A stretch of 64,000 bases of DNA from Candidatus Omnitrophota bacterium (GTDB taxonomy: Bacteria > Omnitrophota > Gorgyraeia > Zapsychrales > Fredricksoniimonadaceae): positions 120,581 through 184,580 of the forward strand of contig CAJARJ010000018.1 of the NCBI GenBank assembly GCA_903944345.1. The letters are read 5' to 3'. Shown here one piece after another: positions 9,878 through 62,901 of the stretch. A program made the position numbers and the translations under genes. The notes under the pieces were generated by a model. That model was given only the letters and a program-made list of their open reading frames with translations. It was not told the DNA's origin and searched no databases. The stretch's first letter is position 1. Every line of letters begins with the position of its first letter.

Positions 9878-11203
9878 TTAACGGATCAATCTATCAATAT
9901 CCTCAAACCCAAGAGCCTGCCATTCAACTTTATACTTTGGATAACTGGCGATCAGGGCCTTTGATTTTGCCTTTAATGCCGCGAGATCAATTCGGTCCTT
10001 GTTCATCTTAACTTCAGCAATAACCAGTTCTTTCTTCATATCGTTCATCGCCACCAGATCGATCTCGTTCTGATGATCCTTCTCCCAGTAAGACCCGATC
10101 TTATTGAATTTCCCAGTCTCCGCGAATAACGCCTGAAAGAACTGCTCAAGGACGCGGCCGGCATACGTCGAATAATCGCGCCTGATCACATCCCGAATAT
10201 ACTCAAAGTTCCCAGTCTCAACTGCGGACCGATTCCGATAAATGAACCGAAACCAGAATGCCAGGAAATTATCCGTGATCCGATACTTTTGGGACTTCGA
10301 ATTAGGCTTGGCATTGATCGGCTTATACTTCTCGATCACGGCATAGTCCCGTTCCAAGCGCTCAAGATACCCGCCGATATCTGACTCAAGAATGGACTGG
10401 ATCTCCGAGCGGCCCGTCTTCCCCACAGAGATCAACTCAAGAATAGAGAAGTATGTCCCATATTCCTTGCCGAACTCTTCGATCAACAGATTTCTGCCCT
10501 CATTGAGAAACGGCGAATTGGCCTCGACTACAAAGTTAAGCATCTCTTCAAATGTAAAGGCCTTATTCTCCACTAACAAATCAATATATTTTGGGCTCCC
10601 ACCGGTGAAAAGGAAATAATTGAACACCGCGGCAGAGTCCTTAACCTTATAATCACGCAGGATACTTGCTGTTGTCTTAACCGAAAAAGGCTTGATCATG
10701 AACATCCGATCCGCTCTATTGAACAACGGCTCTTTGGATCCTTCAAATATCTTGTGCATCAGGGAATAAACTGATCCAACGCAAATGACATTCAACTTGC
10801 TCTTGGCCTTGTTCAGATCCCAGAGTTTCTGCACCTCGGAATAAACTGACGGATTGATGTTGTAGAACTCCTGGAACTCATCAATGATAACAGTGAACGG
10901 CACATCCTTGGCGATCTGCAGCAACAACTGAAAAACATCACGGAAGGAACGGACATCCCCGATTACAGGAGCATCTGGGAACGATCGTTTGATATCTGCA
11001 ACAAACTCCTCACAAAGCAACACCTCAGACTTCTTGGCTACAAAAAGGTAAAGGTACTTCTTATCCTTGGCAAACTCTAAGGACAAAAGAGTCTTCCCCA
11101 CACGCCTGCGGCCGGTAAGAACGGCCATGCGGGAACCGCCTTTTGTCTGCCCCATCAATTTGTTGAGTTCAACCAATTCCTGCTGTCTATCATAGAATCT
11201 CAT
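9878..11203 (-). CDS. AAA+ ATPase of the archaeal-ATPase/DUF234 family
   Basis: Walker A motif LTGRRRVGKT. Walker B-like motif VIIDEFQEF. The C-terminal DUF234-like region (NFLAFWFRFIYRN) is present. A GGAGG ribosome binding site lies 8 nt before the ATG at 11203. The gene is AT-rich relative to its neighbours. Confidence 0.75.
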   Translation of the reverse strand: MRFYDRQQELVELNKLMGQTKGGSRMAVLTGRRRVGKTLLSLEFAKDKKYLYLFVAKKSEVLLCEEFVADIKRSFPDAPVIGDVRSFRDVFQLLLQIAKDVPFTVIIDEFQEFYNINPSVYSEVQKLWDLNKAKSKLNVICVGSVYSLMHKIFEGSKEPLFNRADRMFMIKPFSVKTTASILRDYKVKDSAAVFNYFLFTGGSPKYIDLLVENKAFTFEEMLNFVVEANSPFLNEGRNLLIEEFGKEYGTYFSILELISVGKTGRSEIQSILESDIGGYLERLERDYAVIEKYKPINAKPNSKSQKYRITDNFLAFWFRFIYRNRSAVETGNFEYIRDVIRRDYSTYAGRVLEQFFQALFAETGKFNKIGSYWEKDHQNEIDLVAMNDMKKELVIAEVKMNKDRIDLAALKAKSKALIASYPKYKVEWQALGFEDIDRLIR

Positions 11204-11394
11204 AATTGTAACCTCCGTTACTGTAACCAAGGTTACTATATAAAGCGGTATTTGTCAATGACTGGATAAATAGAAAGCCCCTCGTGATCTTACGATCACA
11301 AGGGGCTAAACTTCCAAATGCACTCCGTTGGGCACATTATGGTCACATATCTAAGATGTTAATTCCCGACAATATGCACTGCAACGATTTATAA

Positions 11395-11415
11395 ATAATG
11401 GCGGAGGTGACGGGA
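11395..11415. repeat. Degenerate copy of the ssrA 3' terminus (attR-like direct repeat)
   Basis: AATGGCGGAGGTGACGGGA at 11395-11415 is compared with TAATGGTGGAGGTGCCGGGA at 12782-12802. Identity is 19 of 21 positions, in the same orientation. The repeat lies 7 nt beyond the toxin gene stop. Confidence 0.5.
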
Positions 11416-11424
11416 GAAAAGGTA

Positions 11425-11793
11425 TTAACGATACAGCCCGACAATCCTTGCCCTGTCCTCATTCTCTTTATCGCCCTTATAGTAAATCTCAATGAACTCA
11501 ACCACATCTCCCGTCGATAAATAGGAGTAGATTACTCTGATACCACTCTGCGCCCCCTTGCCCTTGAGTGACTTGCAGGCAAACTTCTTGGCTTTATAAA
11601 CTTTCGGCTCTTCAATGCCAAGACCAGCAATCCGCACAACACCGCCATTATCCACGCCCAGCTTGTGTGTCAGAACTAACTGCTTATCAATGAATACATC
11701 CAAATCTTCGTCCAGCGACTGAAATTTCTTCAGCAGCTTCTTGAATTCCTTCTCAAACTCCGGCAGTTTCTTAATCTCAGTGAACTTCTTCAC
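11425..11793 (-). CDS. RelE/ParE-superfamily-like toxin (toxin-antitoxin module)
   Basis: 122 aa. A lysine-rich N-terminus is followed by KSLKGKGAQSGIRVIYSYL...IEIYYKGDKEN, which resembles the RelE/ParE core pattern (K.L.G...YRiiY...hRkd). It overlaps the upstream antitoxin gene by 17 nt. Confidence 0.6.
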   Translation of the reverse strand: MKKFTEIKKLPEFEKEFKKLLKKFQSLDEDLDVFIDKQLVLTHKLGVDNGGVVRIAGLGIEEPKVYKAKKFACKSLKGKGAQSGIRVIYSYLSTGDVVEFIEIYYKGDKENEDRARIVGLYR

Positions 11794-12565
11794 TATACGA
11801 CCTCACTGAGTATGGCTGTGTACGATAAAAAACAGATTCATAGTCAATGATGTCGCCTTCCTCCGTTGTCATCCACGGCACATCACGATGCGAGTAGTCG
11901 CTAATTTCAACTGCCTTCATGTGGGACAATTTAGCAATAACGTCGTCGATAACCTCGACTTCCCTTGCGTTTAACTGCTCCAACCTCGGCTCACGCAATG
12001 GCAGGTATTTCTTTTGCGGGTACTGAAAGAACTGGCTTTCAATCTTTTCCAATTCCTGGCTCTGAATCATGTCTTGAACAATCTCTTTGAACTCAACAGG
12101 AGCTGGTCCATGAGGCAGTTTCTGGTAGGTTGCTCCGACAAGCTGCTCCTCGTACTTCTCATAATAATCAAAATCAATGAAGTACAGCAGTTTATACAGC
12201 ACTGTTTCCCCGACATTCGGCTTAGACCCGACCTTATCGAGGACATACAACAGCACTTCCTTGAATTTATCTAGCTTCTTTTGAGGAACGCTGATACGGA
12301 TTTCCTGCTTAACTTGTTTGGGCGTTTTCTCCAAATGGACTTTAACCGCTTTGTTCCAATCCAATAAAGCATCCGTGCCCATCTGAAACAACTTGGCAAA
12401 ACCTGCCAGCTCTTCAGCACTCAGCTTTCTCTCCCCATTCTCCAACTGCGAAAGAGATACCCTGCTAATCCCAAGAGTTTTTGACACCTGCTCCTGAGAT
12501 AAGCCAGCCTTCTCCCTGAGTTCTTTGATGCGGGAACCTATTTTCTGTCCAAAATTACCACTCAT
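11777..12565 (-). CDS. HTH-XRE plus Panacea (DUF4065) domain antitoxin-like protein
   Basis: N-terminal XRE helix-turn-helix (GLSQEQVSKTLGISRVSLSQLENGERKLS). The C-terminal LYKLLYFIDFDYYEKYEEQLVGATYQKLPHGPAPVEF matches the DUF4065/Panacea pattern. Confidence 0.7.
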   Translation of the reverse strand: MSGNFGQKIGSRIKELREKAGLSQEQVSKTLGISRVSLSQLENGERKLSAEELAGFAKLFQMGTDALLDWNKAVKVHLEKTPKQVKQEIRISVPQKKLDKFKEVLLYVLDKVGSKPNVGETVLYKLLYFIDFDYYEKYEEQLVGATYQKLPHGPAPVEFKEIVQDMIQSQELEKIESQFFQYPQKKYLPLREPRLEQLNAREVEVIDDVIAKLSHMKAVEISDYSHRDVPWMTTEEGDIIDYESVFYRTQPYSVRSYSEEVH

Positions 12566-12725
12566 GGGGCACCTTCCTTATCTAAAACTTGCCTGAAATC
12601 TACCCAAGATTACCATGTGTTGGATAATCTGTCAATTAGATGTCATATATTGCTACAATTAAAGGCAATACAAACAACTCTTGCCTCTACCCAATGGGCA
12701 CCTTTGGGGCACAAACATTTCTCCG

Positions 12726-12772
12726 TAAAAACACGAACGCCGCAAGTCGTTCATTGATAACAGCTTGCGGCG
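12726..12772 (-). terminator. Intrinsic terminator of ssrA
   Basis: Stem cgccgcaag/cttgcggcg at 12739-12747 and 12764-12772. On the minus strand it is followed by TTCGTGTTTTTAC. Confidence 0.55.
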
Positions 12773-12781
12773 CAGTGAAAC

Positions 12782-12802
12782 ATAATGGTGGAGGTGCCGG
12801 GA
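12782..12802. repeat. ssrA 3'-terminal att core (partner of the 11395-11415 repeat)
   Basis: See the repeat at 11395-11415. Confidence 0.5.
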
Positions 12803-13175
12803 ATTGAACCCGGGTCCTTGTGTGTCTAAGATTGAGCATCTACATGCGTAGGCCGTCTTTAAATCTTGTTTTACGCGTTTCAACGGTCAAACCCGCGTAA
12901 AACCAGCCCTCTTGATCTTGTCCTTCCGGCGAAGGCATCGGAAAGACCAGCCTGTTTAGTTCCAATAGTAAAGCGACAGACTCCCTTTACTACAGGGCTT
13001 AGTCTTTTATTAGACTAAGGCTGGTGCTTCAGCTCCGGCCAAAATGGCCTCGGCTTCGGCGACGACGTCGTAGTTGTCGTTTGCGTTTGTTTTTTGATGG
13101 ATTTATACGAGGCCAACCATCATCCCCGGCATGCCACCCAGCCCCGGCTCACTCAAGTCGAGACCAGTCACCCCC
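12786..13175 (-). ncRNA. ssrA: tmRNA (SsrA)
   Basis: The 5' end is GGGGGGUGA (reverse complement of tcacccccc at 13168-13176). The 3' T-arm and acceptor end is GGGUUCAAUUCCCGGCACCUCCACCA (reverse complement of 12786-12810). The acceptor stem carries a G3.U wobble. A tag frame reads GCA AAC GAC AAC TAC GAC ... TAA TAA. smpB lies 560 bp away. Confidence 0.85.
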
Positions 13176-13733: not shown

Positions 13734-14189
13734 TTAACGGGCCCGGCTGCGTACCGCCCGCGCGATCTCGCGCTTGCTGTCGCGCTCCTTGATATCGGCG
13801 CGTTTGTCGTAAAGCTTTTTACCCTGGGCCAAGGCAATCTCAACCTTGACCAGCCCCCGGGAATTCAGATAAAGCTTTGTCGGCACACAGGTCAGGCGCT
13901 TCTGCGTCAGGTTGCCAAAAAGACGCTTGATCTCTTTTTTATGCATCAAAAGACGGCGTTTGCGGTCAGGATCTTCGTTAAGATAACTGGCCTGCGCATA
14001 AGGCGCAATGTGCATGTTATAGAGCCAGACCTCGTTTTCTTCCACCCGCACATGGGCATCGGCAAAATTGACTTCCGCATCACGAACCGACTTGACTTCG
14101 CCGCCCCGCAATTCGATGCCGCATTCCCATTTCTCGGTGAGAAAATAGTTCTGGTACGCTTTTTTATTGGTCGCCAAGGGTTCTGCCAC
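13734..14189 (-). CDS. smpB: SsrA-binding protein SmpB
   Basis: ATNKKAYQNYFLTEKWECGIELRGGEVKS is a canonical SmpB N-terminus. The basic C-terminal tail is present. Confidence 0.9.
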   Translation of the reverse strand: MAEPLATNKKAYQNYFLTEKWECGIELRGGEVKSVRDAEVNFADAHVRVEENEVWLYNMHIAPYAQASYLNEDPDRKRRLLMHKKEIKRLFGNLTQKRLTCVPTKLYLNSRGLVKVEIALAQGKKLYDKRADIKERDSKREIARAVRSRAR

Positions 14190-14225: not shown

Positions 14226-14588
14226 TCAGCGGGCGTAGTCGTCTTCAATGCGCTCTATATCGTCTTCGCCAAAATAATCACCGGTCTGAATTTCGATGAA
14301 GACCAGACTCTCGGTACCTATATTTTCAATGCGGTGCGCACACTCGCGCGGAATATCAATATACTGCCCCACAGCCAGCACACGCGCCACACCGTTAATG
14401 GTCACCCGCGCGGTTCCGCGATGAATAAACCAGTGCTCCTCGCGTTTGCGGTGCCGTTGCAGGCTGAGCCGCTGTCCGGCGTGCACTGTAATTTCCTTAA
14501 CTTTGTGGTCAACCCCGTTGAGAAGAACCGTGTACGTTCCCCAGGGACGCTCGCCCACCGAAACCAGATACTCACGCTGATGTTCCAT
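14226..14588 (-). CDS. Cupin-domain protein (mannose-6-phosphate isomerase type II C-terminal-like)
   Basis: Cupin motifs G(X)5HXH-like (QRHRKREEHWFIHRG) and a second motif are present. Confidence 0.7.
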   Translation of the reverse strand: MEHQREYLVSVGERPWGTYTVLLNGVDHKVKEITVHAGQRLSLQRHRKREEHWFIHRGTARVTINGVARVLAVGQYIDIPRECAHRIENIGTESLVFIEIQTGDYFGEDDIERIEDDYAR

Positions 14589-14740: not shown

Positions 14741-14821
14741 GCGGAAGTGGTGAAATGGCAAACACGCAGGTCTCAGAAGCCTGTGCCGCAAGGCTTGAGG
14801 GTTCAAGTCCCTCCTTCCGCA
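14741..14821 (+). tRNA. tRNA-Leu (anticodon CAG)
   Basis: Acceptor stem GCGGAAG/CTTCCGC. Anticodon stem CAGGT/GCCTG with loop CTCAGAA, giving anticodon CAG. Long variable arm GCCGCAAGGC. T-arm GGGTTCAAGTCCC. The structure resembles E. coli tRNA-Leu. Confidence 0.8.
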
Positions 14822-54897: not shown

Positions 54898-55790
54898 AAA
54901 TAAATTTCCCCTGCCACCCTTTTTATGACACGGCCGTCATCCAGAGCCAGCATAAGGCCGCCATCATCTGCAAGCCCCAATGCCGTTGCTGTCAGCCTTT
55001 TGCCTCCAGAGTCGAAACTTACCCGACAACCGGCAACCGCGGAGCGACGCTCCCATTCGCGTAAAACAACACTCCACCCGCAGTCTGATACAGAGAAATA
55101 TCTGCGCTCAAAAACACGCAAGAATGCCTGCAGAAGGACACTCCTGCCGCAATTGCCAACAGCCACCTCGCTTAACCCTATTGCTGTCGAGGACAGCTCT
55201 CCGGAAAGCGGGGCTATATTGAGCCCGATGCCAAGAATTACAAACTCAACACATTCTTTAGCCACTCGGGATTCCAGCAGAATACCTGCCAGTTTGCGCC
55301 CGTTGACCAGAATATCGTTAGGCCATTTGATGCGACAGTCGATACCTGCCGCGTCCTGCAAAGTTTCAGCCAACGCGACCGCAGAAAGCAAAGTCAGCAG
55401 CGGCGTCACAGTCGCCGGCCACGCGGGACGAAGAAGTAATGAAAAGTACATTCCGTTTCCGACAGGAGACACCCACGCACGCCCCAGGCGTCCACGCCCT
55501 TTGGTCTGGGCTTCAGCCGTAACCAGCGTCCCCTCGGGAGAACCAGACTCTGCCAGACGAAGCGCCTCATCCATAGTGGAAGAAAGGACGGGATGACAAT
55601 ACACCTGCCGGCCCATAATCCGGGTGTTAAGGCCGCAAATAATCCCTTCAGCCGAAAGGTTCGGGGCAACCGTGTTTGTACCCGGAGAGTCCGATGTCTG
55701 CCTGTTTATCATCCTGTCATAGTAAAGAGAGATAATTGGCTTGTCAACGGGGATCAAAGCCGAGGAAACCCAAAAGATCTTCCTGTGCAT
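54894..55790 (-). CDS. birA: Biotin--protein ligase (group I BirA, no N-terminal HTH)
   Basis: GRGRLGRAW and KWPNDIL motifs. The ATG at 55790 overlaps the upstream giant ORF by 47 nt. An alternative start is MINRQ at 55712. Confidence 0.8.
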   Translation of the reverse strand: MHRKIFWVSSALIPVDKPIISLYYDRMINRQTSDSPGTNTVAPNLSAEGIICGLNTRIMGRQVYCHPVLSSTMDEALRLAESGSPEGTLVTAEAQTKGRGRLGRAWVSPVGNGMYFSLLLRPAWPATVTPLLTLLSAVALAETLQDAAGIDCRIKWPNDILVNGRKLAGILLESRVAKECVEFVILGIGLNIAPLSGELSSTAIGLSEVAVGNCGRSVLLQAFLRVFERRYFSVSDCGWSVVLREWERRSAVAGCRVSFDSGGKRLTATALGLADDGGLMLALDDGRVIKRVAGEIYL

Positions 55791-58700
55791 GAACCGCGAT
55801 AATCACCGGCGAGAGGCCGGGCGTGTCACGTAGCGCCTTGAGCTGGGCTGAATCGATGTGAAACCGCAGAGCTCTGCCGGAGAACCCGACCTCCAGCCTG
55901 TCTGCCACAAGCCCGAGATCGACACCGCCAACAGGAGTGTCCGTTTCTGCGGCTTCGTTCGTAATCTGCACCGGGACAAAAAGATTCTCAACTATCCCGT
56001 CTTTCAAGAAAACACCATCCGGGACATTCTGCGCTGCAGCCTGGTAATTCATTTTTATCGGCTCATGCAAATGCAACGTCAGCTGCGGTTGGCGGTAAAG
56101 ACCCGCGCTTACCTTGACCAGAACCGGCGCGCCATTTTCATCCTGCATAGGCAAAGCACCGTAAGCATCAGAATACATAAAAGAAGAACGCCCGGGGAAA
56201 AGACTCAGATTAAAAGAACGCAAATCATTAAAACTGCGCATGATCTCCTGCGCCGGTCGATGCGAGGTGGTCACAAGCACGGGCAGTCCGGTCCGGAAAG
56301 AAAGGGCCTCAAACAGTCGATAAAGCCTGAGAATATCCCTTGTCCCAAACTGTTCGCTCTCCTCGATGACAATCGCCGGAAACTTTCTGCTTTCTTCCTG
56401 CACAATCATAAGCCTGACCATCCTCCGGGGCGGACTAACCTGCCCGTTCTCGTCAAGGAATGTCGCCGCCTTTACCGTTCCGTTAGAAATATACCCCGTT
56501 AGGCCGCGGTTGAGATCATTGGAATACGTGACACTCTGGCAAGCCGTTGACCCGGGATAATTGCCGATGTTCAGCAAAGCATAATAATCATCCGTAAAAG
56601 ACGCCCGCAAGCCTTCCCCCAGATCTATCTCAAGCGTTTCTTCCCAGGAACGTATCTTTTTAACCCTGGACTTAAGTTCATCGAATCCCTCGACTGCCAT
56701 CAGTTTCCTGTAAAAGCCCGCCTCGGATGTTACCCCGAAAGCCGCCTCCAGTCTGCCTTGATCTTCCGGAGCAAGCTCCCCCATAAAAATGGCCACGGCC
56801 TCGTCCAGAACCTTGAGATAATCCGGACTGGCATACTTCCATTGCCGGAACTCCCCGCGCGCTTCCGCCAGCAAGGCATCAAACATGTTGACGTAAATCT
56901 CCTCATCCTGGACACGTGACAAATACGTGCTGAGCAAATCCTTTATGCTGCGCTTCTCATGATCCAGCCATGAACTACGAGGATTATCAGGAGAAAAGTA
57001 CTCCCTTAACTCGGAAAATTCCTCCCCGCTAACCGGACGCAAGCGGCCGACCCGTTCTGCAAGAATGATCAAGTCTTTATCGGCATACATTTTTAGAAAA
57101 TCGCCGATGGCCCTGCGGTCGATCTGACCGGATCCGGCCTGCGCCAGGATATCAGCAGCCCGGGCGAACAGACCTTCACCGGAAGGATCATCAAGAGCCC
57201 GGAAAACCTTGTCAAACGCGCTTAACAATCCGGATAATTCTTCCGCCCAGGACGCCAGATTTGTTCTTGCCGGAAATCCAATTTCCGAATGCAGGAATTG
57301 CATCATCGCCGTAAAAACAGCCGTTTTTTCAGGATTCTTCTCAACGGACAATCGCGCTAGTGATTCATAAAGCCTGTTCTTGATCAACGACGATCCCGGT
57401 GCATTGTAAGCCGCCCTCATAAGAACCGCGAACAGCTGCATATCCTCCCGGGACTTTGCAAGCCGCAACAAAGGCTCAAAAAACACATGCGGTATCTGCG
57501 TCTGAACCGAAACAAGCACTCCCCCATCCTGATCAACAACTCCGGATTTGAGCTCTTCCAGCCCGGCCAGAAGTTTCGGGTCTCTTTTGGTTGCGGCCGC
57601 AAGGCTGCCGGTGACCTGTTCTTGCACGGCAACAGGCAACTGGCGCAAGAATGCAAAGCCATATTCCCGCAGGCTGTCTGCGGCTGAGAAAGAGTCCTCA
57701 TGATCTGCAGACGAGAGATCCCGGAATTTCTGAAGTCTGAGGGCCATGTCAGGATTCCCGGCATTGGCCAGGACTGTGCCAATAAACTTGCCTTTACCGT
57801 CAACCTTCGACAATGTATTCAGTTTAAATTCAATAATGGGTAATAACCCGATCTGTGCCAGACGCTCCTGCGGCAAATACCTTTCGACAGCTCTGACAAG
57901 ATTGGGCAAAGTCGCAGACTGTTTGACCCCTTCAAGGAAGCCCGGAACATCTACTGGAGCCGCAGTCCCTGCCGCCAGAAGAATGTCCCCCAGAAATACA
58001 ATCTGATCGCTGAGGACAAACAGGTTGGAAACAATAAACTCAAACTCGCGCATCAGCTGATCAATATCAAGATCTTCCCTTGCCTTAAACCTGGCCCTTA
58101 AATCTGTTCTTAATTCTTCCAGGGACTGTTTGGGATCATCCCGAATAAACGCCAGAATCCGGGACAACTCCTCAACCGATACCCAGCCCAACAAACGCTG
58201 GATGTCCTCCAGCTTGACGGCATACTGTTGCGAATCGTTATAAAAGAACTCTTCGAAAACCTTCCTGTCGGCCCCGACATCCCTTCCCTCCGAAAAAAGA
58301 AGATCAAACAGCTCGTTCTTCTGGTCTTCTCCCAGCCTTCTGATCGCAGGATGTTCCACCTTCTCACGGTTGAGTTCCCTTGCGACCCAGTTAATCTGGC
58401 CACGGAACTCCGGATCGTAGACCCGGCGGACATCCCCGCGCTCCTTAAGATAGCGGGCGACCTTGATGTTAACACCAAACAACCGCGCAATCTGGACATC
58501 CGGCAGAGCACGAATCACGCCTAAAAGCACAACCGCCGTTTCAGGATCATTGCGCACAAGAGCTTCGATAGCCTTGCCCGTCACCCCGGGGAAATGGCCC
58601 GCCAGAAACTGCAACCGGGCAAGAATTAACCCGTATGTTCTGGATGCTGATTCTGTTCCTGCAACAGATCTGGCGAGAAACTCCGTATGGAAGATATCCA

Positions 58701-61700
58701 GCAAACTTTTAACAACCAGTCGGGATTGACGATCTCCGTTATAGGATAATTTTCTTAAGATTTCTATCTCCCACTCTCCCGCTGTCTGCTGTGAGGACAA
58801 ATCATTCTCTGTGCGCTCCTGTGCGAGGGCCCGCGCCAGACGCTGAACCATGACCTGACGTAAACCATCGGCAACGCTATCCTCAAGCGCTCCGGCCTGA
58901 GTGAGAATACCACTCGCCTCGCGGAGAAGAACTTCATTTGCCCCGCCGTTGAGAACAATATCCAGAAGAACATTCCCGGGCCGGGCCGCGACTCTGGCTC
59001 TTATTAAGCGCCAGGACTCCAGTGTCATCTCATCCCCTGCATTCACCGCAAGCTGGTATGCTTGTTGAATCTCCGCCTCATATGACCCCAGGTCAAAAGC
59101 CTCCGGCAACTCATCCCACTTCTGCAGAATCTGTTGCGGATCATAAGCCAGAAGAAACATCAAGATCCTGCGTAAATCATCCGGATTCTTTCTCTCGATC
59201 CTGTCCAAAAGGCCTTTCCAGACTTCAGCCTGGCGATCTGGCTCTGTTCCGGAAACAATAACCGGAGCTAACAACATTAAACTATCGTATGCCCATCGGT
59301 TTTGACTGCACAAACGCTCGATATCCGCCCAGGAATCAGCGAGCAAATCCGGCCCCAGAGACTCACCCAGAACAGAAAGAAATCTGGCCGGTGAGCTGTC
59401 ATCCTGCCGCAAACCGTACAAATAATGAAAATAATCCTCGGCATCCGCGATTAATTCTTCTGCCCGGTGCCCGAATGCCTCCATAAAAACAACCACAAAT
59501 TCAAAAAGCGTAACTCTGTCTATCCCGGACACCTCTTGCCCGGTCATCTGCCCAACCACGGGGACGACTAGCTCCTGATGTGCCAGATACCATTCCCCCG
59601 CACCACCGGACATAAACCGCAACAGAAGCGGCCTGACACCCGTACGCTCGCTCATAGGCAGCAGGCTCTCAAATATCCCCGCCCGGCTGACGATCAGCGG
59701 AAGCCAGGTTCGCCATCGAACAAGCCGATATTCCGCACTCTTAAGAGCCTCGGACATAAGAGCAACCACAAGATTTCTGTCATAACTTCCCGTCGGTGGA
59801 AATCTCCCTGCGATCTGCGCCACAGCAGGGTTAATCTCTTGCAAAAACGTCTCCAGTTCCATATCAGAAGCGAGCAAGGCGACAAGATCATAGGTATACT
59901 CCTCAACATAACCCAAAGAGTCTCCCCATTGATTGAGTCCCGAAACAATCTGCTCTCCCAGCAAACGTGCATCAACACGAAAAACATCTTTCCCATAAAC
60001 TGAAACCAGTGCTCTGATAAAACCCAGAACGGCGGGTCTGTGCAGGTGCTGGATTGTATTTAACGGCCCGCAGAGCGAATCAATCCAGTCGTTGAACTTC
60101 CGCCCGGAGATGCCGATATCGTTCCCTGTTCTCTCAAGCACTGTCAAAAAAACCGTTTCAAGAAAACCTCTGTCCGCGCCAGCCTTCTCCGGAAGAAAGA
60201 AACCAAAGATATCTTCATCCGATTCTCCCCAAAAATTCTGCAGTCCGCGAGACTCCTTCCAGGCCAGAATACTGGCGACACGTCGCAGCTGAACATCAAT
60301 CCAGGCATCTAATCCGACCGTTTTTTCGACCAGGGCAAGGAACCCCCCCGTAAAATATGCCCAGTGCTTGCGGATTTTCTCCCTTCCCATATATTCAACG
60401 GCCACGCCCAGTAAATAAATCCTTCTTTCCGCATCTTTCTGCCCCAGCCATGGCGGAAGATGCGTTTCAAAGTCTTCCCATGCGTCAGCACCTTCCGGCT
60501 GAGCACGCAATCCGATAAGATTCTTCACGGCTGACTCAAGGCTCCAATCGGACACCTCAGGCGAAGCGGCTGCGGCCAGCTGATGCGTAAAGTTCAGAAT
60601 GGAAGAAGCGTGGGCAATAAAGCGTGCTCCTCCGATTCTCCCTTTCATTCCCTTTAGAACACCATTAAGAACCCCAACAAATTTTTTTCTTGATTGCGAC
60701 GGTAATGTGGCAAACGTTTCCGCCCATTGGCCGCTTAGTTCCGGCCAGAATGCTATGAAATTCCGTTCCCCTTCAAGGACATCCGCAACGCTCCGGATCA
60801 CCGAAACATAATCTTCTCCCAATCCGGGATATTTTCCGTCATCATCAACTTTTCTGACAATAGCTGCCACCCCCTCGATAAATCCTTCCTGTTTCAGCCA
60901 GTCCCGGGGGTATTTCGCATGAACTTCTTTCCACACCGCAGCAATTCTTGCGCCATCATCTCCCGTTTCAAGAACAAGCGCAAGCATATCCGACAAACGC
61001 TCCAGAGTCTCTGCCTCTTGACCGGAAGAACTCTCTTCCAGCATCAACTCCAGCATATTGCGCAAAGCATAACTTTTGACCTGATCGGCATGCACAGCAA
61101 ACAGTTTTCTGGCAGCTTCAAACAGGGTTGCCCCATTATTACGCCACCCCTCCATGCCTGCTTTCTGTGCCAGGGAAACAACTGCCCCGGGCAAGGCACT
61201 GTAAAGCATGCCGGAGAGCTGTCTGGGCGGAGTTCCTGCAAAAAATGACCAGACGCTGTCAAATAGTTCCGGATTTTCCTGTAACGGGAAATAAACCTCT
61301 TCCACAAGACGCTTTGCGAGAAACACTCCCACTCCGTTCCTGAGCAAGCCAAAAATACGCCGCCAGATCTCGGGAGGAATCCGTTCAGGATTCTCCTGCC
61401 ATTCTGCCGGATGCCATAACAGCTGCAGCCCGGAACGTATATCCTCAGCCTCGCTCAACAAGCCATTATCACGCCAGAATTCTACCTGACTGCGAAAAAA
61501 GGCAAGATCAGCCATTGAAGGAGAACCGAACATCCCGGCCTGATAAACAATGGCTTTATTCAGCCTCCGGGCAAGTGAACGTGCGCGCGAACCAACCTTG
61601 GGCTCCTCTGCACTCTGACCGTGCACTCCTGCTACCGCTGTCTGCAAGGTGCGAACGGATTGACGCAAGGAAGGTTTTAACATGACCCGCAGCCCATAAT

Positions 61701-62868
61701 ATGTACCCTTTATCGCCCCGCCCATCCGGCTTAAAAAACCGGAACGATCTGCTGTGGTAATCTGCATTGCTTTATCCATCTCACCGGCAAAAGAAAATCC
61801 ACCGGCAAAATATTTGCGCGGGATAAGCTCTCCCGAATACACATCCTGCTCGTCTCTGATTATGTCGTAAGCCCCCTGTTTGAATGACTGGATATAACGC
61901 TGCCAGATCTTTTCACTTTCATCGGGATCCGCCATGTCAACCCCCGCCACTCTGCCGCGATCTACGTACACCCGGGACAACAAACTCTCCTTGATCTTGC
62001 GCTTGTACCACGCCGAGAGGACGAGCGAATAGTACGCCTGCCGCAAGCGGGCAAACCCGGCGCCATAATTAACCTCGTGCTCAAGAACCGGGAGTACCAC
62101 TTCACGAAACACCGGCCTGACCAACTCCTGCATAGAACCTTCAGAAGGAACACTCTCTTCTTGCGATTGAAACGAATTATTTTTCGTAACCGCCAGATAA
62201 TCTGTTTCCAGAAGCACTTTAAGCCTGGTCTCGGTCACATAAGCTGCCACCTCGGTCTGTCCATCCTCTCCATCTGATTGCCTCTCAAAAATAGCTGCCC
62301 GATCAGGCATGATCCAGACTTTATTAAACGTATCAACCGGAATATCTGTCGTACCGTAGCGTGCAAATGCCCGCGCGTAAACCTTCTGCCAGAACGCTTT
62401 CCCTGCCTCCTCTTGCGGATAAAGTAAAGAAGAGGCCAGCTGCTTGAGCAAATAATCTTGCGCCAGCAAATCCCGCCCCATCTCGGTCTGTCCAAACTCG
62501 TTGACTATAATGCGGCTTTTTTCATAAGGCGAAAGGTTGACCCACAGATCTTTCTCCGGTATGGTCAAGCCCGCCAAAAAGTACCGAATCAGGCGTGGGG
62601 CTTCTGTCTGCAAAATCTCATCTGAAGTCTTTCCGGAGGGAGGAGCATCACTGGCAGCCAAAATAAAATCCAGCCGAAGAGGATCGGCTTCCTGCACCCT
62701 GACTCCTTTAAGAACTGGCGGAGAATAATCGACACTCAAGGCCACCCTGGTTCCTGGCACCGGCAGCAGGGACGCCGACTGCCCGTAGACAGGAGGCATG
62801 CTACTGGTCGTAAACAAAGCCGCAAGCACAGTCAGACAGACTATTCTTTTGACTCCGTTAGACATCAT
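55744..62868 (-). CDS. Giant (2374 aa) secreted protein of unknown family, predicted mainly alpha-helical
   Basis: A single uninterrupted ORF. Signal peptide MMSNGVKRIVCLTVLAALFTTSSMPPVYGQSA. An AAGGAGAGA ribosome binding site directly precedes the ATG. The composition is dominated by L, A, E, R and is low in G and P. No recognisable catalytic or repeat motifs were found. The C-terminal ~330 aa have a different composition. Confidence 0.7.
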   Translation of the reverse strand: MMSNGVKRIVCLTVLAALFTTSSMPPVYGQSASLLPVPGTRVALSVDYSPPVLKGVRVQEADPLRLDFILAASDAPPSGKTSDEILQTEAPRLIRYFLAGLTIPEKDLWVNLSPYEKSRIIVNEFGQTEMGRDLLAQDYLLKQLASSLLYPQEEAGKAFWQKVYARAFARYGTTDIPVDTFNKVWIMPDRAAIFERQSDGEDGQTEVAAYVTETRLKVLLETDYLAVTKNNSFQSQEESVPSEGSMQELVRPVFREVVLPVLEHEVNYGAGFARLRQAYYSLVLSAWYKRKIKESLLSRVYVDRGRVAGVDMADPDESEKIWQRYIQSFKQGAYDIIRDEQDVYSGELIPRKYFAGGFSFAGEMDKAMQITTADRSGFLSRMGGAIKGTYYGLRVMLKPSLRQSVRTLQTAVAGVHGQSAEEPKVGSRARSLARRLNKAIVYQAGMFGSPSMADLAFFRSQVEFWRDNGLLSEAEDIRSGLQLLWHPAEWQENPERIPPEIWRRIFGLLRNGVGVFLAKRLVEEVYFPLQENPELFDSVWSFFAGTPPRQLSGMLYSALPGAVVSLAQKAGMEGWRNNGATLFEAARKLFAVHADQVKSYALRNMLELMLEESSSGQEAETLERLSDMLALVLETGDDGARIAAVWKEVHAKYPRDWLKQEGFIEGVAAIVRKVDDDGKYPGLGEDYVSVIRSVADVLEGERNFIAFWPELSGQWAETFATLPSQSRKKFVGVLNGVLKGMKGRIGGARFIAHASSILNFTHQLAAAASPEVSDWSLESAVKNLIGLRAQPEGADAWEDFETHLPPWLGQKDAERRIYLLGVAVEYMGREKIRKHWAYFTGGFLALVEKTVGLDAWIDVQLRRVASILAWKESRGLQNFWGESDEDIFGFFLPEKAGADRGFLETVFLTVLERTGNDIGISGRKFNDWIDSLCGPLNTIQHLHRPAVLGFIRALVSVYGKDVFRVDARLLGEQIVSGLNQWGDSLGYVEEYTYDLVALLASDMELETFLQEINPAVAQIAGRFPPTGSYDRNLVVALMSEALKSAEYRLVRWRTWLPLIVSRAGIFESLLPMSERTGVRPLLLRFMSGGAGEWYLAHQELVVPVVGQMTGQEVSGIDRVTLFEFVVVFMEAFGHRAEELIADAEDYFHYLYGLRQDDSSPARFLSVLGESLGPDLLADSWADIERLCSQNRWAYDSLMLLAPVIVSGTEPDRQAEVWKGLLDRIERKNPDDLRRILMFLLAYDPQQILQKWDELPEAFDLGSYEAEIQQAYQLAVNAGDEMTLESWRLIRARVAARPGNVLLDIVLNGGANEVLLREASGILTQAGALEDSVADGLRQVMVQRLARALAQERTENDLSSQQTAGEWEIEILRKLSYNGDRQSRLVVKSLLDIFHTEFLARSVAGTESASRTYGLILARLQFLAGHFPGVTGKAIEALVRNDPETAVVLLGVIRALPDVQIARLFGVNIKVARYLKERGDVRRVYDPEFRGQINWVARELNREKVEHPAIRRLGEDQKNELFDLLFSEGRDVGADRKVFEEFFYNDSQQYAVKLEDIQRLLGWVSVEELSRILAFIRDDPKQSLEELRTDLRARFKAREDLDIDQLMREFEFIVSNLFVLSDQIVFLGDILLAAGTAAPVDVPGFLEGVKQSATLPNLVRAVERYLPQERLAQIGLLPIIEFKLNTLSKVDGKGKFIGTVLANAGNPDMALRLQKFRDLSSADHEDSFSAADSLREYGFAFLRQLPVAVQEQVTGSLAAATKRDPKLLAGLEELKSGVVDQDGGVLVSVQTQIPHVFFEPLLRLAKSREDMQLFAVLMRAAYNAPGSSLIKNRLYESLARLSVEKNPEKTAVFTAMMQFLHSEIGFPARTNLASWAEELSGLLSAFDKVFRALDDPSGEGLFARAADILAQAGSGQIDRRAIGDFLKMYADKDLIILAERVGRLRPVSGEEFSELREYFSPDNPRSSWLDHEKRSIKDLLSTYLSRVQDEEIYVNMFDALLAEARGEFRQWKYASPDYLKVLDEAVAIFMGELAPEDQGRLEAAFGVTSEAGFYRKLMAVEGFDELKSRVKKIRSWEETLEIDLGEGLRASFTDDYYALLNIGNYPGSTACQSVTYSNDLNRGLTGYISNGTVKAATFLDENGQVSPPRRMVRLMIVQEESRKFPAIVIEESEQFGTRDILRLYRLFEALSFRTGLPVLVTTSHRPAQEIMRSFNDLRSFNLSLFPGRSSFMYSDAYGALPMQDENGAPVLVKVSAGLYRQPQLTLHLHEPIKMNYQAAAQNVPDGVFLKDGIVENLFVPVQITNEAAETDTPVGGVDLGLVADRLEVGFSGRALRFHIDSAQLKALRDTPGLSPVIIAVHAQEDLLGFLGFDPR

Positions 62869-62873
62869 TCTCT

Positions 62874-62901
62874 CCTTCAGGCTTCAGACTCCACCTGAAG
62901 G
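62874..62901 (-). promoter_or_regulatory. Stem-loop overlapping the ribosome binding site of the giant gene
   Basis: Perfect 8 bp inverted repeat ccttcagg/cctgaagg. The arm proximal to the start codon contains the AAGGAG ribosome binding site. Confidence 0.3.

Follow-up and report, generated by a model that had tools for sequence, protein, structure and literature searches.

A probable recombinase-free toxin-antitoxin cassette between ssrA-derived direct repeats in an Omnitrophota genome

Results

A two-gene islet lies between two copies of the ssrA 3' end

We analyzed a 64-kb stretch of contig CAJARJ010000018.1 from a Candidatus Omnitrophota bacterium, hereafter the window, in which a 1.37-kb islet carrying a predicted toxin-antitoxin (TA) pair lies directly behind ssrA, the gene for transfer-messenger RNA (tmRNA). 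ssrA (12786..13175, minus strand, as are all features of this locus) is intact, encodes its CCA end and is the presumed integration target; it was located by ARAGORN and matches Rfam RF00023 over the full length of the model (positions 1-374, 181.4 bits). Its last 17 nt (TCCCGGCACCTCCACCA) together with the adjacent TTAT form the proximal copy of the attachment site (att), attL (12782..12802). The distal copy, attR (11395..11415), consists of TCCCGTCACCTCCGCCA and TTAT, is identical to attL at 19 of 21 positions, and begins 9 nt past the stop codon of the toxin gene. Read in the direction of ssrA, the 1.37 kb between both copies contain a trailer with a terminator, a promoter-like site, a 262-aa open reading frame (ORF; 11777..12565) and a 122-aa ORF (11425..11793). 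These two ORFs, which share 17 nt, are the only genes between the repeats. The GC content of the islet is 0.448 versus a window mean of 0.519.

When the 21-mer ATAATGGTGGAGGTGCCGGGA (12782-12802) was searched for in the window with up to 3 mismatches allowed, the single other match was 11395-11415, on the same strand and with 2 mismatches. A second match was found in none of 100 dinucleotide-preserving shuffles of the window, and a repeat search of the window independently reported the same pair. Our results confirmed the repeat and the two overlapping genes as described in a previous interpretation of the DNA from its letters alone (the sequence-only reading), and chance does not explain the duplicated ssrA 3' end. 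That interpretation had the repeat composed of about 20 nt of tmRNA and a few further bases; the duplication is real, and its actual make-up is 17 nt of ssrA and 4 nt downstream. No similarity was detected past the 21 bp, as local alignments of the 160-nt flanks were matched by shuffles (225 of 1000 downstream, 598 of 1000 upstream). The two copies differ in the last T-stem pair and in the discriminator base; as these differences would disrupt the pairing and alter the discriminator, a working tmRNA could not be served by the distal copy.

The identical structure, with the same two mismatches, was present in every independent strain assembly retrieved (L001, L002, L006 and L009-L011; L-numbers designate the retrieved contigs or loci used for comparison). 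Furthermore, the same 17-mer is the repeat unit in L172, L092, L175 and L178. No further degenerate att that would enlarge the island was found downstream on the ssrA strand at up to 5 mismatches. On the opposite strand, an att-like match with 3 mismatches (51744) falls within a long ORF, is at chance level, and was discarded.

The islet encodes a predicted PanA-type antitoxin and HigB2-like toxin

The 262-aa ORF encodes PanA, the predicted antitoxin, which contains an XRE-type helix-turn-helix (HTH) domain (residues 9-68) and a SocA/Panacea domain (residues 123-231). In Pfam, PanA scored 75.2 bits against PF13274 (SocA_Panacea, cut-off 25.7) and 54.6 bits against PF01381 (HTH_3), thereby bearing out the fusion of an XRE-HTH to Panacea (DUF4065) that had been proposed from the sequence. 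The match to NCBIfam SocA_antitoxin was weak. The 122-aa ORF, which has a GTG start, returned nothing usable as a single sequence from Pfam, NCBIfam, PHROGs, PADLOC or PDB sequences. A profile of 69 sequences of its family matched V. cholerae HigB2 in the PDB (E = 1.7e-4, residues 69-117), and both share the motif KGKG..SG.R.IY...IY.K. The AlphaFold model of the toxin (pLDDT 96.7) predicts helices at residues 11-23 and 27-44 (H11-23, H27-44) followed by strands, the two N-terminal helices being packed on an antiparallel beta-sheet as in the RelE/ParE superfamily. Leading matches of this model in a Foldseek search of the PDB were nearly all RelE, HigB, YoeB and YafQ (TM-scores of 0.5-0.67 on target length), the few exceptions among the top 50 including PfiAT toxin chains, Cami1 and, at rank 50, the ParE-type toxin PrpT. 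Profile and fold thus agree with the RelE/ParE-like nature suggested earlier for this small protein, and its nearest relative by both is HigB2.

The toxin family is large: it comprises more than 2,500 clusters when grouped at 90% identity, and 519 representatives when grouped at 50%. D30, R86 and K106 are invariant in the family alignment and K67, E102, Y104 and R116 are nearly so, and these residues may have a catalytic role. We observed an HTH-Panacea homologue directly upstream of the toxin homologue in 77 of 80 metagenome loci, the other three being cut by contig ends. The domain, profile, fold and neighborhood evidence led us to assign the pair to the PanA-type TA systems, with a HigB2-like toxin of the RelE/ParE superfamily.

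Putative regulatory and recombination signals occur in and around the islet. A hairpin with a T-run (12733..12772; inverted repeat 12738-12751 / 12759-12772), found by a terminator scan directly 3' of ssrA and inside the islet, is the working ssrA terminator. The likely operon promoter, TTGACA-17 nt-TAATCT (12607..12635), was read from the sequence and is conserved in homologous cassettes; the block TTGACAGAT(A/T)ATC is kept upstream of the homologous pairs in L008, L014, L092, L093 and L094. This site, not flagged by a consensus promoter scan, is presumed to be the target of the PanA HTH. A second, strong terminator hairpin lies 3' of attR (11276..11307), where the terminator scan and an inverted repeat delineate a 14-bp stem with 8 G-C pairs; it was probably the ssrA terminator before insertion. 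Furthermore, a tandem 7-mer motif is found in the left arm of the cassette (GTGCCCC-AAAG-GTGCCCA, 12695..12712) and just outside the islet (GTGACCA-TAAT-GTGCCCA, 11329..11346), in each case 70-90 nt 3' of an att copy. The motif (GTGNCCA-N4-GTGCCCA) was defined post hoc, and its two occurrences in the window compare with 0.025 expected. A near-identical motif is present at both ends of an unrelated cassette in L175 (L175:11552 and 12696), and it is possibly an accessory or arm-type recombination site.

The cassette recurs as a unit in other Omnitrophota

BLASTN comparison of the window with the same gene pair in L008, L014/L174, L092, L093 and L172 returned one block, from window position 12580 to 11421 (to 12644 with L094). 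This block starts at the ribosome-binding site or the promoter, extends 4 nt past the toxin stop codon and stops 5 nt short of attR. The surrounding sequence is unrelated from contig to contig: L008 has an IS66 fragment and RhuM/SNF2 genes, L092 has a HEPN gene and a fragment of a restriction enzyme, and L014 has Band_7. The cassette was found with the same junction in the other genomic contexts of L172 and L092, and L008 provides a context away from ssrA.

The Panacea and toxin part (11461-12260) of the window shares 87-97% nucleotide identity with L007/L008, whereas the SmpB proteins of the hosts share 73% amino-acid identity and their tmRNAs align only partly (79-84%). This high identity between diverged hosts indicates that the cassette was transferred horizontally. 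The part comprising the promoter, HTH and linker (12261-12650) is merely 60-77% identical to L007/L008; the cassette is therefore a mosaic rather than a faithfully copied element, suggesting that the DNA-binding/operator module may have been exchanged independently of the neutralization/toxin module.

Members of the toxin family are located within about 400 nt of tRNA or tmRNA genes at 7 of 80 metagenome loci: beside the tmRNA gene in L098, beside tRNA-Pro, tRNA-Asp and tRNA-Ala genes, and beside a tRNA-Ser gene in the apparently orthologous L120, L127 and L143. Three tRNA-like 3' ends (GTTCGATCCCGTTCAGCTCCACCA) are located 3' of another PanA-toxin pair in L117 (L117:1912-2384, reverse strand), and resemble an array of att sites that would belong, in another lineage, to a different tRNA or tmRNA gene. 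Several independent assemblies (L003-L006, ERZ1426763 / ERZ1426747) break inside the TA cassette or at its edges, consistent with near-identical Panacea-toxin modules in other genomes of the same communities; population polymorphism is not readable from these contig break points (L003 to L006). Toxin variants at 92-97% identity (P0002-P0026) are mostly on short contigs.

Homologous cassettes lie in att arrays linked to a tyrosine integrase

L172, a contig of an NCBI metagenome-assembled genome (MAG), encodes a toxin 96% identical to that of the window. Its gene order is HTH_3, HTH_17 (excisionase-like), a 372-aa tyrosine integrase, a perfect att, PanA, toxin, a second perfect att, a terminator and glycosyltransferase genes. 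The first perfect TCCCGGCACCTCCACCA is located about 60 nt after the integrase stop codon, and the right end of the cassette reads '...AATGCCCATTT' before the second perfect att. The same integrase-att-cassette-att arrangement was observed in L173. L092, which encodes a toxin 94% identical to that of the window, has a right junction in which TTAATGCCCATTT is joined to TCCCGGCACCTCCACC, the corresponding window junction being TTAATACCTTTTC joined to TCCCGTCACCTCCGCC. In L092, this junction is followed by a terminator-bearing segment of about 130 nt and then by another att copy. In L014 and L174, ssrA and the cassette are separated by this ~130-nt segment, which has a truncated att (CCCGGCACTT) at its end. 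Such att-bounded modules in different order across genomes are as expected from repeated site-specific integration into any available att. A candidate left-edge att in L092, L093 and L094 (16 of 25 matches to the ssrA end) did not rise above background and was discarded.

Homologues of the L172 integrase are few; those of L175-L177 share 62% identity with it and that of L178 shares 53%. In every homologue inspected, a perfect 17-mer with two short direct repeats ahead of it lies about 55 nt past the stop codon, and three integrase lineages carry this att at such a distance. In L175, a different small TA-like cassette (split NTP_transf_8 genes) lies between two att copies. Within L176 and L177 (JGI contig JGI1357J11328_10000051), a segment of more than 17 kb is present in two copies about 26 kb apart, and contains a DUF4011 helicase, TIR and AAA_15 (defense-like) genes, the integrase, an att, a cassette, an att and polysaccharide genes. 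An ssrA-like 3' end is located between the two copies (L177:18012). This arrangement could reflect true tandem duplication or accretion, or it could stem from misassembly.

Relatives of the toxin or of the L172 integrase were found in none of the viral contigs searched, and a phage origin thus receives no added support.

Neighborhood of ssrA

Beyond attR and outside the repeat-bounded islet, an ATPase_2/DUF234 gene (9878..11203, minus strand) was assigned by Pfam and matches PDC-S27, a candidate phage-defense family of PADLOC (E = 2.4e-43). Its GC content (0.456 versus the window mean of 0.519) is low like that of the islet. This gene may be older cargo of the same ssrA array, and the region behind ssrA may be a small defense/TA island with an eroded outer boundary.

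On the other side, the order tRNA-Leu(CAG), sometimes a cupin gene, SmpB and ssrA is kept in many Omnitrophota loci (L012, L014, L015, L018, L021-L024); in the window, the corresponding coordinates are 14741-14821, 14226-14588, 13734-14189 and 12786-13175. L098 contains two tRNA-Leu(CAG) copies 3.4 kb apart. CCA is encoded in ssrA of the window, L014, L018, L022 and L023, and is not encoded in L015 (10906-10925) and L177 (18012-18030), where the ssrA 3' end ...CACCTCCA is followed by TTT. L015, whose tmRNA tag is closest to that of the window, encodes a small serine recombinase (Resolvase and HTH, 11540-12139) about 600 nt behind ssrA, which shows that a second kind of mobile element uses the ssrA neighborhood. 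Elsewhere in the window, a very long ORF of about 2,379 aa extends over 55747-62883 on the minus strand.

Discussion

We consider it likely, though some way from certain, that the islet behind ssrA is a recombinase-free TA cassette that entered the ssrA 3' end site-specifically and now lies between attL and attR. Its family would circulate among Omnitrophota as att-bounded modules in tandem arrays behind ssrA, moved by a dedicated tyrosine integrase lineage that is carried by companion elements using the same att, through accretion and cis- or trans-mobilization as in cis-mobilizable elements (CIMEs). At this locus, a tyrosine integrase from a companion element, which is gone or may never have been resident, would have joined a circular or accreted form of the cassette to the ssrA 3' end by recombination. 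The insertion would have regenerated a functional ssrA end, brought a new trailer and terminator, and left an imperfect copy of the site at the far side. The junction of the excised cassette circle is predicted to read ...CGTTAATACCTTTTCTCCCG(T/G)CACCTCC(G/A)CCATTATGTTTCACTGCG... With no integrase nearby and two mismatches in attR, the cassette of the window is probably stranded. The sequence-only reading had left the choice between a decayed element and a TA-only cargo; the latter is favored by the cassette of L172, which is att-bounded on both sides, and by the same junction in L092, while decay is less favored.

Most likely, the C-terminal Panacea domain of PanA binds and neutralizes the toxin while its N-terminal HTH represses the promoter of its own operon. 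Upon PanA depletion, the freed toxin would most likely cleave ribosome-bound mRNA like HigB2 and RelE, resulting in growth arrest. Such an activity could stabilize the cassette and its neighbors by addiction or abort phage infection.

Several observations weigh against this explanation. First, the islet, with its two genes, encodes no recombinase, as the sequence-only reading had noted, and no relative of the L172 integrase was found in the window by tblastn and phmmer, searches that did not exhaustively scan all recombinase families. Second, no empty site was found: an SmpB scan of the genome collection gave no relative at the genus level (best identity 77%) and none with the same downstream genes, the predicted empty junction ...GGGTTCAATTCCCGGCACCTCCACCATTATTTATAAATCG... 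had no exact match in JGI metagenomes, and every strain assembly recovered through exact-protein look-ups of the flanking 146-aa and 441-aa genes was occupied. As a result, the case for an integration event rests on the repeat, the boundaries, the composition and the parallel arrangements. Third, the pair is located directly behind ssrA in L014 and L098 with no distal repeat in the sequence available. Finally, the left arm of the window cassette (trailer, terminator, promoter and HTH) is non-homologous or 60-77% identical to other cassettes.

Two alternatives have a modest chance of being correct. In the first one, a larger ssrA island with its own integrase decayed in situ, deletions leaving the distal addiction module and attR. 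Such a history would account for the lack of an integrase in the islet, for the drift of attR at two positions and for the integrase element that directly adjoins the cassette in L172. Furthermore, the window lost a 3' region of about 165 nt that is present in L172, apparently between two AATGCCCA repeats, confirming that deletions do occur at the cassette. However, a complete att separates the integrase element from the cassette in L172, and the TA unit is thus att-bounded in its own right. Decay would also require a deletion that stopped precisely at the exact ssrA end, which is the left end of the foreign segment, and it fits poorly with the differing array positions at which the same TA unit occurs. 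We therefore regard in situ decay as unlikely.

The second alternative retains the same mobility and concerns the toxin, which could be a ParE-like gyrase poison, or have another activity, instead of being a ribosome-dependent mRNase. The RelE/ParE fold is common to mRNases and gyrase poisons, one family member weakly matches PF05016 (ParE_toxin, E = 0.0025), and ParE-type toxins are among the known Panacea partners (PMC8832971). Conversely, the sole significant match at the sequence level is the mRNase HigB2, the mRNases RelE, HigB, YoeB and YafQ account for nearly all of the 50 best fold matches, and one family member matches PF06296 (RelE). On this balance, an activity other than mRNA cleavage seems improbable, to about the same degree as decay.

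Far less probable is that the TA pair is ancestral, was inherited vertically and works in functional connection with trans-translation, the repeat being an unrelated relic. The pair is found 170-290 nt after ssrA and in the same orientation in three Omnitrophota lineages (the window, L014/L174 and L098), and a functional connection can be conceived: mRNA cleavage by RelE-type toxins yields tmRNA substrates, and tmRNA-SmpB rescues ribosomes stalled on RelE-cut mRNAs. However, the pair is absent behind ssrA in L015, L018 and L021-L024, while near-identical cassettes are located away from ssrA, next to the IS66 fragment and RhuM in L008 and the HEPN gene in L092, and relatives of the pair also lie beside ordinary tRNA genes. 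The terminator between ssrA and the operon and a cassette far more conserved than the host genes also argue against coupling, and the latter comparison suggests a conflict between the phylogenies of the TA pair and of its host, as represented by SmpB. Lastly, that the 21-bp match arose by chance beside an ordinary chromosomal TA pair finds nothing in its favor except the two mismatches and is practically dismissed by the shuffles and by the same 17-mer flanking the homologous cassette in L172 and L092.

Returning to the favored explanation of an integrated cassette, a broader version of it is tentative and, in our view, has the odds against it. The ssrA 3' end of Omnitrophota could be the att of an integron-like platform, at which small, recombinase-free, promoter-bearing cassettes would be captured, reordered and exchanged in trans among att copies by one ssrA-specific tyrosine integrase lineage. 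Such cassettes would include the PanA/HigB2-like pair, the AbiE-like pair in L175 and possibly the PDC-S27-like ATPase. TA cassettes may prefer the slot beside the att of the integrase, and the proximity of a RelE-type toxin to the genes for tmRNA-SmpB rescue could also have been put to functional use.

With two att half-sites, a terminator, a promoter and a TA pair in 1.4 kb, the islet is a minimal mobile unit that shows how addiction or defense modules may travel. It exposes a candidate system of ssrA-targeted integrases and cassettes in Omnitrophota; for this candidate phylum, which is known from MAGs, little has to our knowledge been reported on mobile elements. Furthermore, the large HigB2-like toxin family, which has no Pfam model and is nearly always found with HTH-Panacea, lends itself to a new family model. 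Islands that escape integrase-based island finders can be delimited by short ssrA-end repeats.

Comparison with known systems

CP4-57 of E. coli and VPI of V. cholerae integrate at the ssrA 3' end; their insertion restores the end of the gene, and the copy that it displaces marks the far boundary. Such classical ssrA-integrated prophages and islands were reportedly surveyed by Williams in 2003 under the title 'Traffic at the tmRNA gene'. Unlike the islet described here, CP4-57 and VPI span tens of kilobases and each has an integrase gene of its own. Integron cassettes, which rely on attC and IntI, differ in another way: the boundaries of the islet are ssrA-derived direct repeats instead of attC-like imperfect palindromes, and the associated integrase adjoins an ssrA-type att. 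V. cholerae HigB2 (PDB 5ja8, 5ja9, 8a0x), a ribosome-dependent mRNase, is the best profile and fold match to the toxin. The HigB2 TA system is located in the chromosomal superintegron, an array of site-specific recombination units. Identity between the two toxins is about 20% with a TM-score of about 0.5, and the antitoxin of HigB2 is HigA2, not a Panacea protein.

In streptococci, CIMEs are associated with the accretion and mobilization of ICESt1-type elements; their definition came from experiments on the fda 3' end of Streptococcus thermophilus. Like CIMEs, the islet is flanked by att copies and contains no recombination or transfer genes, and the tandem arrangement with integrase-bearing elements that use the same att is found in other genomes (L172, L173, L175-L178, L092 and L014). 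Unlike the case of CIMEs, mobilization is deduced here from comparative arrangements. The CIME concept is cited in PMC3146451 and PMC5704250. As for the cargo, PanAT systems (Kurata et al. 2022, PMC8832971) include 343 PanAs with an N-terminal HTH, and their toxin partners include RelE-fold (MqsR-like) and ParE-type proteins. The islet likewise encodes a DUF4065/Panacea antitoxin with an N-terminal HTH in a two-gene operon with its toxin. Its toxin family lacks a Pfam model and has HigB2 as its closest relative, and neutralization is predicted. The pairing of Panacea with RelE/ParE-type toxins being already described (PMC8832971), we regard this pair as a further, new representative of the PanAT and RelE/ParE families.

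Among described systems, the ssrA island arrays of Dehalococcoides come closest. In these bacteria, ssrA-specific genomic islands (ssrA-GIs) form tandem modules downstream of the single-copy ssrA, with ssrA itself or direct repeats of the gene's 3' end of about 20 bp as boundaries, and some modules without integration genes were proposed to be cis-mobilizable by accretion (McMurdie et al. 2011, PMC3146451). Modules bounded by ssrA repeats, some of them without integration genes, are thus common to both systems. In contrast, Dehalococcoides uses a pair of serine recombinases (DsiB/DsiA, CcrB-like) beside attL, whereas the enzyme found here belongs to the tyrosine integrases and its gene is transcribed towards an att located 3' of it, and the module described here is 1.4 kb long, has a TA cargo and resides in an Omnitrophota host. 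The general kind being already known, the islet is an unusually small example of it and not a conceptual surprise.

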